Origin: Alphaproteobacteria bacterium
GTDB lineage: Bacteria > Pseudomonadota > Alphaproteobacteria > UBA2966
Direction of reading: 5' to 3'
NCBI GenBank assembly: GCA_964291395.2
Contig: OZ219858.1
Coordinates: 640,001-704,000 of the forward strand
Length of the DNA stretch: 64,000 nt
Shown here: in pieces, positions 32,574 through 51,201 of the stretch
Layout: every line of letters begins with the position of its first letter
How positions within the stretch are numbered: position 1 is the first letter of the stretch
Notes under the pieces: model-generated
Told to the model about the DNA's origin: nothing
The model's database searches: none
Seen by the model: only the letters and a program-made list of their open reading frames with translations
Position numbers and translations under genes: made by a program

Positions 32574-32650
32574 TGGCGACCCCGGAGGGATTCGAACCCC
32601 CGACCTACGGATTAGGAATCCGCCGCTCTATCCGACTGAGCTACGGGGCC
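32574..32650 (-). tRNA. tRNA-Arg (anticodon CCT)
   Basis: GGCCCCGTAGCTCAGTCGGATAGAGC-GGCGGATTCCTAATCCGT-AGGTCGGGGGTTCGAATCCCTCCGGGGTCG-CCA; 77-nt cloverleaf with encoded CCA. Confidence 0.97.
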
Positions 32651-37600: not shown

Positions 37601-37846
37601 ATGGAACGGGTCATGATCGCCATCGACGACGTTTACGTTCCCGCGAAGCGCCGTCGCACGCTGGTCGCCGGGACTGTCACCGCCCTGGCCGAAAGCATCC
37701 TGGAGGAAGGTCTGAAGACACCTATCCTGGTGAGGCCCGACGGCGACCGGTTCGTGCTCGTCGAAGGACTCCACCGGCTCGAAGCCTGCAGGGCCCTGGG
37801 GGAGGAGATCATCCCAGCATATGAGGTCAATGCCCGCCTCAGGTGA
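37601..37846 (+). CDS. Small stand-alone ParB/Srx N-terminal domain protein
   Basis: LAESILEEGLKTPILV..FVLVEGLHRLEA. Confidence 0.8.
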   Translation: MERVMIAIDDVYVPAKRRRTLVAGTVTALAESILEEGLKTPILVRPDGDRFVLVEGLHRLEACRALGEEIIPAYEVNARLR

Positions 37847-50240: not shown

Positions 50241-50499
50241 ACTTCTTCAGTCGTTGGGCGCGGACGCCGTTGTCGGAAGTGCCCAAAGCCTCACGTGAGC
50301 GCTCTCGGAGCGCTTGATTGCGGGAGTCAGATCGGAAATGCAGATCCACGGTGCGCTGCCGCCGGGGGCTTATGACCGACTCGAGCTCGCCCGGTGAGGC
50401 GGATTTCGCCCGCCGATCAAAAAATCACGATTTTTCGCTCGTCCCGAGAAAGAATTTTCGTGCGGGATTGAAAGTCGAATGCCTGCACAAGCCATTTGG

Positions 50500-50552
50500 A
50501 ATCAAGGGATTGGAACAATCCTGTGGATAATCCAGGGATAATAATTGGATAA
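50500..50552. promoter_or_regulatory. IHF consensus site plus three phased DnaA-box-like motifs
   Basis: AATCAAGGGATTG (WATCAANNNNTTR) at 50500-50512; TGTGGATAA at 50522-50530; GGATAA cores at 50525, 50536 and 50547. Confidence 0.5.
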
Positions 50553-50599
50553 TAAGACCAAATATCCCCAAGAAATTTGCTATGGAATTACTTTTTCGA

Positions 50600-50627
50600 T
50601 TGCAGTAACTCGAAAGATATCTAGAAT
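50600..50627 (+). promoter_or_regulatory. Sigma70-like promoter for the structured RNA
   Basis: TTGCAG-16 nt-TAGAAT with an AT-rich upstream region. Confidence 0.6.
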
Positions 50628-50633
50628 ATGAGG

Positions 50634-50827
50634 TGGATCTTGGAGCCTTCGGGTTGCTTGATCCGGGACCGCAAAGCTTTCGGGTGGCGCGGTCCAGGAG
50701 AGGCGTCAGGAGTACTCTTCGGAGTACGCGCAAAGACCCCGCGTCTGAGCACTTGACGCCTCTTCGCATTTTCGGATCTTTTACTTGAGATCATGATGTT
50801 GCGGCGGGCAGAGCCCGCCTTTTTCTT
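50634..50827 (+). ncRNA. Unrecognised highly structured ncRNA, about 190 nt
   Basis: Nested helices including a 14-bp stem (50697-50710/50752-50765), three UUCG loops, upstream promoter, downstream intrinsic terminator, no credible ORF. Confidence 0.7.
50803..50827 (+). terminator. Rho-independent terminator
   Basis: GGCGGG-CAGAG-CCCGCC followed by TTTTTCTT. Confidence 0.8.
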
Positions 50828-50880
50828 GCGCGCATTTCAGCGACACGCCTCTTTAGACCGCCGCGCCCCGGCGCCCGAAC

Positions 50881-50970
50881 AAAGAAAGACCCGGCGCAAC
50901 TTCATCGGAAGAAGTTGTCACCGGGCCTTCCGGCATCAGAAAACGCACCCGCGTCAATGCACTTGAGCAA
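50881..50970 (-). ncRNA. Candidate sRNA, about 90 nt, convergent with the structured RNA
   Basis: Minus-strand TTGACG-17 nt-TAGGGA promoter (51004-50976); ends in hairpin CCCGG..CAACTTC/GAAGTTG..CCGGG plus TCTTTCTTT. Confidence 0.45.
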
Positions 50971-51201
50971 TGTTATCCCTACCAATTTGGATATGCCCCG
51001 TCAACAATATATTGCGATATTGGCGCTGACATTGGACATATATGGTGTAGAAGAAAGATAGTGCCGCGATGTCGTCCGATCCCGTCCGCCGGGATCCTCG
51101 TCCGCACGGCATTGTGTGAATTGTGCAGAAAGCTCGGGCCGCTTTGCGCGCCGGCGCGGGCGGGAGACCCGGCGCCTGTCGCCGCAATGGAGAGTCGAGT
51201 C

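Follow-up and report, generated by a model that had tools for sequence, protein, structure and literature searches.

A small structured RNA gene is encoded on the + strand of the window, that is, the whole 64,000-nucleotide stretch of DNA analyzed here, and the family to which it belongs is uncatalogued and occurs in Alphaproteobacteria. It is nearly certain that the locus is a real, separately transcribed, structured RNA gene. The preliminary description had proposed an independently transcribed structured non-coding RNA, and this was borne out: the promoter and the structure are retained among relatives with compensatory changes, and a discrete insert in RNA libraries fits the predicted ends. 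The same description called the RNA an orphan, which has to be given up, since the RNA belongs to a family spread over several alphaproteobacterial families. Two features lay outside that description: an array of DnaA boxes upstream of the gene, and hairpins that are modular and expandable. The RNA may be a DnaA-controlled, protein-binding scaffold or sponge that does not act by base pairing, and a probability of roughly 45% is assigned to this reading. The features of the locus are summarized in Table 1.

Table 1. Features of the RNA locus, in window coordinates.
Feature	Position	Strand	Remarks
Three reverse DnaA-box-like 9-mers, 11 bp apart	50522..50552	-	50522-30 perfect; 50533-41 and 50544-52 degenerate
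Forward DnaA-box-like 9-mer with AGAAAT	50562..50576	+	50562-70 with 2 mismatches; AGAAAT conserved
Promoter	50600..50627	+	-35 TTGCAG 50600-05, 16-nt spacer, -10 TAGAAT 50622-27
Small RNA gene	50634..50773	+	MFE = centroid, z -4.43; ~131-140 nt
Hairpin 1, degenerate module copy	50634..50665	+	GGAUC/GAUCC base, mismatched middle, GCC-UUCG-GGU tip
Hairpin module 2	50666..50695	+	7-bp base, AAA opposite GGC, 3-bp tip with UUCG cap
Family-defining 3' three-way-junction domain	50697..50765	+	covariance models R1-R3, alignment A5
P1	50697-710/50752-65	+	outer 14-bp stem of the 3' domain
P2	50712-17/50722-27	+	UUCG loop
P3	50730-31/50749-50 plus 50734-37/50743-46	+	loop 50738-42
U-rich tail after P1	50766..50773	+	UUUU at 50769-72
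GC hairpin (50803-19) and T tract, second terminator	50803..50824	+	non-conserved, back-up

Extent and Fold of the RNA Gene

The 5' end of the RNA is predicted at 50634-50638 and the 3' end at around 50768-50773. The + strand of the segment 50630-50830 folds with a minimum free energy (MFE) of -97.2 (z -5.56), which was equaled by none of 200 shuffles. For the RNA gene itself, the MFE structure and the centroid coincide at -69.1. The fold of the - strand is weaker than that of the + strand, with a z of -3.7. The RNA-bearing stretch is present as one copy in its own genome.

The RNA in the window is laid out as hairpin 1, hairpin 2, and a three-way-junction (3WJ) domain. Several local elements of the preliminary description are found in the sequence just as they were described: the AGCC-UUCG-GGUU hairpin at 50644-55, the helix GGACCGC/GCGGUCC (50666-72/50689-95) with its UUCG loop, and the 14-bp stem, now P1, that encloses GUACUC-UUCG-GAGUAC and another hairpin. 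The same description also has two long-range helices, 50636-43/50785-92 (the closing stem) and 50660-65/50773-78. Their strands can pair, but neither helix occurs in the MFE structure or in the centroid. The 3' partners of both helices are lost or altered in homologues, and they lie beyond the end of the insert found in RNA libraries. The long-range helices are therefore unsupported, and the topology is linear (hairpin, hairpin, 3WJ) rather than a single closed multi-branch.

No protein-coding gene is compatible with the locus, as no reading frame survives module periods of 29 and 31 nt together with changes of copy number. None of the 8 longest stop-free stretches of the long paralogues described below was matched by Pfam.

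Presence in RNA Libraries

Four public runs were compared with the window: X1 (study P1), X2 and X3 (both from study P2, which is labelled as a sponge metagenome), and X4. Contigs of the RNA libraries X1, X2, and X3 share the piece 50638-50766 (+2), an insert of ~131 nt that starts ~10 nt past the -10 box. The piece differs from the window at 6 positions in 129 nt, which indicates that its source is a close relative of the window's organism. It is directly flanked by loose ends that are presumably Illumina adapter sequence; X1 and X3 have them at both ends of the piece, X2 at its 5' end. This adapter-flanked insert of ~131 nt matches a discrete small RNA, in contigs at a depth of 3-5 for which DNA carry-over is possible and the strand is unreadable. 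The run X4, whose kind is guessed and which could be DNA, covers 50672-50822.

Search of RNA Catalogues and Literature

When the whole window was compared with Rfam 15 (4227 models) at the gathering threshold, the sole match was a tRNA at 32577-32650. At E<=10, the sole match in the RNA region was L20_leader, with 21.8 bits against a threshold of 58.7, and it was driven by the terminator. The earlier suggestion that the RNA is possibly undescribed thus holds against Rfam 15, in which a match to it is absent at either level. Among 23 homologous loci, nothing was matched on the RNA at E<=0.01. No description of the RNA was found in a literature search from which subscription journals were mostly missing, as were supplements, so that a locally named RNA-seq entry is possible. 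The RNA was not found in the available part of a Caulobacter ncRNA survey (PMC5988900). In the same literature search, no description was found that links replication initiation to an RNA product.

Modular Hairpins of the RNA Body

Hairpin 2 and, in a degenerate form, hairpin 1 are copies of a module. The module consensus is 29-31 nt in length and consists of a base of 6-7 bp, an internal loop rich in purines (AA facing GG in most cases), a 3-bp GCC/GGY tip, and a UUCG cap. The internal loop of hairpin module 2 is likewise purine-rich. A set of 47 distinct modules, drawn from 16 loci, has UUCG, CUCG, or UCCG as loops. Paired stem cells account for 97.2% in this set, a percentage inflated by the pairing filter with which the modules were chosen; 7 of the 9 pairs are double-changed, and 0 of 500 shuffles was as good. 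Just 5 array hairpins were not picked up by this filter, namely the degenerate first hairpin at four loci and one internal module. The stem cells comprise 324 Watson-Crick, 87 G-U, 3 A-C, and 9 other combinations. The excess of G-U over A-C indicates selection on the RNA of the + strand.

The number of modules, counted with the degenerate first hairpin, varies widely. Two are present in the window, G003, G005, and the locus L030, three in G001, four in G002, G004, and three metagenome contigs, and ~9 to 15 in the lineage of G008. The contigs L007, L026, and L027 are near-identical, yet their module numbers are unequal.

Modules are confined to the RNA locus. A regular expression for the module gave 7 matches in the window's own genome against 3 for the control, and only the match at the locus has the module sequence. 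The motif matches are located at the RNA locus in 8 of 9 cases in G008 and in both cases in G168. REP/BIME-type dispersed palindromic repeats were ruled out on this confinement in the own genome and in G008. A mimic of rRNA was also considered and rejected: a module-like hairpin is duplicated at C1:62373 and C2:35268, and it is not rRNA because the region is without an Rfam match.

The 3' Three-Way Junction and Termination

Within the 3WJ domain, the sequence of P1 (GGCGUCAGG/CCUGACGCC) is nearly invariant across the aligned copies. P3 is closed by GC/GC in every copy while its sequence and loop vary; the loop and its flanks are invariant inside the genus, and the loop is not kept between families. 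The preliminary description had called for a homologue search with a check of covariation, and both gave positive results. Relatives were found, and in alignment A5 of 21 domain copies, 16 of the 26 pairs of the 3' domain show compensatory double changes, and none of 500 shuffles did equally well. The paired share of cells in this alignment is 96.8%, inflated because the alignment was fitted to the model, and it falls to 38-54% in slid controls.

In most of the 21 aligned copies, P1 is succeeded by a U-rich tract; exceptions include L037 and L039. The RNA-library insert stops 1-3 nt past P1. It is probable that P1 and the U tail constitute the primary intrinsic terminator. The terminator had earlier been placed at the GC hairpin with its T tract further downstream. 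Such a hairpin does exist, and it is shared by the window, L002/L023, L025/L031, and L029; it is missing in L003, L005, L006, and L007. Since only some relatives have it, P1 with its U tract is the likelier site.

Promoter and Upstream DnaA Boxes

The promoter TTGCAG-16-TAGAAT of the preliminary description is present in the sequence at the positions listed in Table 1. A consensus promoter scan made no call there, because the -35 element agrees with the consensus at just 3 of 6 positions. Support for this promoter comes from conservation: TTGC and a -10 element of the TAnnnT type are conserved among the promoters of homologues.

DnaA boxes were sought with the consensus TTATCCACA. Against it, just the box at 50522 is perfect in the window, and the other three carry 2-3 mismatches. 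This perfect box is 1 of 5 in the whole 4.16-Mb genome. The starts of the first reverse box and the forward box are 40 nt apart, and 29 nt separate the end of the forward box from the -35 element. With at most 1 mismatch to the same consensus, at least one DnaA-box-like 9-mer is found upstream of all 28 first-collected copies of the RNA and of all 8 copies collected later from the own family (36/36 in total). The background in the own genome is 239 such 9-mers per 4.16 Mb, or ~0.08 per 1400 nt.

The upstream layout is stereotyped. Two or three reverse boxes phased by 11-12 bp are followed by a forward box, then by (A/G)GAAAT, an AT-rich segment, TTGC of the -35 element, and the TAnnnT-type -10 element. 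The same phased layout is observed upstream of homologues from other families. The spacing from the start of the reverse box to that of the forward box, at <=1 mismatch, is 40-41 nt in 11 of the 28 and 6 of the 8 copies, and 52 nt in two. The spacing from boxes to promoter is free of gaps in 11 of 11 aligned promoters. The fixed distance of the box array from the promoter suggests that DnaA occupancy most likely controls transcription, which makes DnaA a likely regulator of the RNA.

The replication origin itself was considered for this locus and rejected on location. In Alphaproteobacteria, oriC lies at the GC-skew minimum, beside hemE and parAB. The RNA is at 690.6 kb, while the skew minimum of contig C3 is at ~840 kb, hemE at 844 kb, and parB at 831 kb, i.e., ~140-155 kb from the RNA. 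In the three complete relatives G002, G004, and G095, the distance from the RNA to hemE/parB is 0.4-1.7 Mb.

As a separate observation, GAATC occurs at 50499-50503, with the first DnaA box following ~20 nt downstream, and it is present in 6 of 8 aligned genus-level promoters. It is of the GANTC type and presumably represents the CcrM methylation motif.

Distribution, Copies, and Lengths in the Family

All distribution counts given here come from samples, and a negative count means not found in the genomes searched rather than absent. A DNA search detected the RNA in all 5 of the remaining genomes of its genus and, outside the genus, in one genome that belongs to a second genus. The covariance model R1, built on the 79-nt 3' domain, matched each genome of the genus and G008 once. 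Every one of the 9 loci that a pattern scan of metagenomes had yielded was confirmed by R1 as well, at 72-106 bits. Applied to one genome per alphaproteobacterial family, R1 matched 11 of 150 other families, and R3, a model rebuilt from 21 diverse domain copies, matched 13 of 150, with 1-3 copies per genome. With laxer filters for small sets, 11 of 13 genomes of the own family were positive; among 39 other families searched in this way, 2 were positive, both of them already positive in the larger sample.

In a phylum-level sample, none of 150 genomes was matched by the model. A pattern scan of a genome-contig collection returned 4 stretches, none of them R1-positive at the pattern site, and the relatives are apparently outside this collection. 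Viral contigs gave 0 matches, and no match was found on plasmids by blastn.

The lengths of the members are predictions that assume the same box-to-start geometry in every copy. By this geometry, the length is ~146 nt for the window, L030, and L042, ~450-990 nt in other families, ~650-690 nt for the second copies in G003 and G008, and 1278-1474 nt in two sister genera. On these predictions, the window member is the shortest or minimal form of the family, with two hairpins and the junction. When the second copy of G003 was used as a DNA query, the own genome yielded no long paralogue; it seems to have just the short form. Across the family, 59-75% of the bases of the RNA bodies are paired, and stable tetraloops predominate among the hairpin loops of the MFE structures, namely UUCG (43), GCAA (14), and CUCG (9).

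Several copies deserve separate mention. Three RNA copies are present in G072 and two in G168. On contig C67 of G150, two tandem copies (L040/L044) lie ~870 nt apart, with a DnaA-box array on each. Sister genera carry the paralogues L057-L060 (G007, G010, G006, and G009), L055, and L056, with predicted lengths of 0.65-1.47 kb and with the DnaA-box promoter and 3' junction of the family. They share a conserved 5' hairpin and internal blocks and are candidate large structured RNAs.

Genomic Neighborhood

The gene downstream of the RNA encodes an alpha/beta hydrolase in the window, G003, and G001. The neighbors are unrelated elsewhere, and no toxN-type gene was found among them. No neighbor is conserved across families; genes of acyl-CoA metabolism recur near several copies, inconsistently.

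A second sRNA candidate of ~90-95 nt is located at 50878-50968 on the - strand, convergent with the RNA described here. It is conserved in G003, G005, and G001 (alignment A6). A promoter-like region at ~50972-51010 includes a TTGAC-type -35 and a -10 element, and a long terminator hairpin at ~50883-50925 is followed by a U tract. Rfam gave no match to this candidate at E<=10. Terminators resembling that of the candidate are found downstream of the RNA in L030 and L035.

Three further observations concern the surroundings of the gene in the window and in relatives. In L006 (G004), a REP-like G/C-rich palindrome of ~40 nt (C runs, then G runs) flanks the RNA gene on both sides. At 37640-37819 (+) of the window, ~13 kb from the RNA, a weak ParB_N match was found with 26.3 bits, at the cut-off, and it is distinct from the chromosomal parB at 831 kb of C3. 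A sub-threshold Rfam match to the rpsB sRNA/leader (34.2 bits vs 40) is located at 1921-2042 of L037 (G095), between the RNA gene and the gene for ribosomal protein S2.

Possible Function and Alternative Explanations

In the proposed mechanism, the occupancy of the boxes by DnaA, reflecting the status of replication initiation, would set transcription from a sigma-70-type promoter, in either direction. The body of the RNA is composed, in every member, of short hairpins with stable tetraloops and linkers of 0-2 nt, and it can grow by tandem duplication. The 3' 3WJ would end transcription with its sequence-conserved outer stem and U tract. This junction might be the element for specific recognition and stability, and the hairpin array might provide multivalent sites. 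ProQ/FinO was tried as a partner and rejected: of the 151 class-sample genomes, PF04352 matched only the three genomes G037, G044, and G155, and neither the 14 RNA-positive genomes of this sample nor the own genome had a match.

The scarcity of single-stranded sequence, together with conservation of just the shape and the sequence of P1, argues for a protein-binding scaffold or sponge rather than a base-pairing RNA. The structural tetraloops, the P3 loop that varies by family, and the tolerance of a tenfold range in length likewise favor protein binding over pairing. A conventional trans-acting base-pairing sRNA, in which the C-rich P3 loop (50738-42) or junction bases would be the seed and the terminator with the U tail would bind Hfq, is rather unlikely. 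The invariance of the P3 loop and its flanks within the genus suits such a seed, and Hfq typically binds a 3' stem followed by a U tail, but among families the loop sequence differs while the helix is retained. In addition, hardly any sequence is unpaired, the other loops are UUCG, and a length from ~146 to ~1470 nt is unexpected for a seed-based regulator. The functional element could also be the DNA, either as a locus for DnaA titration or remodelling, like datA or DARS, or as a cryptic origin, with the transcript as a by-product. The phased DnaA boxes beside an AT-rich stretch (GC 0.42-0.44 at 50400-50700) and the box layout kept across families are consistent with it. However, the RNA helices covary with a strong asymmetry of G-U over A-C, the 3' junction is conserved though its distance from the boxes ranges from ~130 to ~1500 nt, and the locus is away from oriC, judging from the distances to hemE/parB given above. 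The by-product explanation is considered unlikely.

It is quite improbable that the 3' 3WJ is a ribozyme or a ligand-sensing aptamer governing its own 3' end or read-through. No ribozyme or riboswitch model in Rfam 15 was matched even at E<=10, the downstream gene is not conserved, and the conserved bases are mainly in helices, not in the junction strands. These points stand against the compactness of the junction with its 0-2 nt linkers, the sequence conservation of P1, and the second downstream terminator in some relatives, all of which such an element could explain. The modules are tandem, 29-31 nt long, and variable in copy number, which would suit a precursor processed to single hairpins, as for ToxI, a type III antitoxin, or for a CRISPR-like array. 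This explanation is very improbable: genes for a toxin, Cas proteins, or a nuclease are not adjacent (pcm is upstream and the alpha/beta hydrolase gene downstream), spacers are absent, many members have two hairpins only, and the library insert covers the whole RNA.

Comparison with Known RNAs

The sponge RNAs of the CsrB/RsmY/RsmZ type are the best analogy for a possible mode of action of the scaffold or sponge proposed here. They share with this RNA an independent gene, repeated hairpins, a copy number that varies among species, and a 3' terminator. In CsrB, RsmY, and RsmZ, GGA motifs in hairpin loops bind CsrA/RsmA. In contrast, the loops here are UUCG, CUCG, or GCAA without GGA, and the conserved feature is the purine-rich internal loop. 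This RNA additionally has the conserved 3' junction and the upstream DnaA boxes, and it is not a member of that group.

The long paralogues, with a predicted length of 650-1470 nt, are similar to OLE, GOLLD, ROOL, and HEARO in that they are large, structured, non-coding, and so far without an assigned function. They differ in the taxa, and no Rfam model matches them. A string of tetraloop hairpins and a DnaA-box promoter are not known from OLE, GOLLD, ROOL, or HEARO.

The E. coli naRNA4 from REP325 reportedly binds HU, contains tandem stable hairpins, and has been proposed to act with a DNA-organising protein. It resembles this RNA as a tandem-hairpin transcript, and a link to replication would suit the DnaA-controlled promoter proposed here; a link to HU would be speculation. 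REP elements are dispersed, whereas the modules here are confined to one locus, and there is no sequence similarity.

ToxI, a type III antitoxin RNA, has a promoter, tandem RNA repeats of ~30-36 nt, and a terminator. Unlike ToxI, the RNA here has no ToxN-like gene downstream, its hairpins are simple, and many members have two of them only.

[quoted passage not shown] It is reported to be a base-pairing regulator of ctrA and gcrA (PMC8959179). The RNA here differs in its position ~150 kb from hemE/parB, in having DnaA instead of CtrA boxes, and in being without single-stranded seed regions.

Implications

It is possible, though less likely than not, that the family represents a new class of RNA: an expandable string of tetraloop hairpins (~135 nt to ~1.4 kb) with a 3WJ terminator and direct DnaA control, which would inform an RNA-binding factor, or the nucleoid itself, of the status of replication initiation. 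Few new families of large or highly structured RNAs turn up in bacteria, and earlier ones led to new biochemistry. For structure determination, pull-downs, and genetics, the evident choice is the ~135-nt form in the window, the smallest natural one. The natural series from 2 to ~15 modules and up to ~1.4 kb is ready for tests of multivalency. The promoter with phased DnaA boxes, conserved over large evolutionary distances, is a testable handle and would tie replication initiation to an RNA. If the new-class reading is true, the DnaA regulon would gain its first RNA output with this RNA, whose family would be a new large structured RNA family in Alphaproteobacteria.
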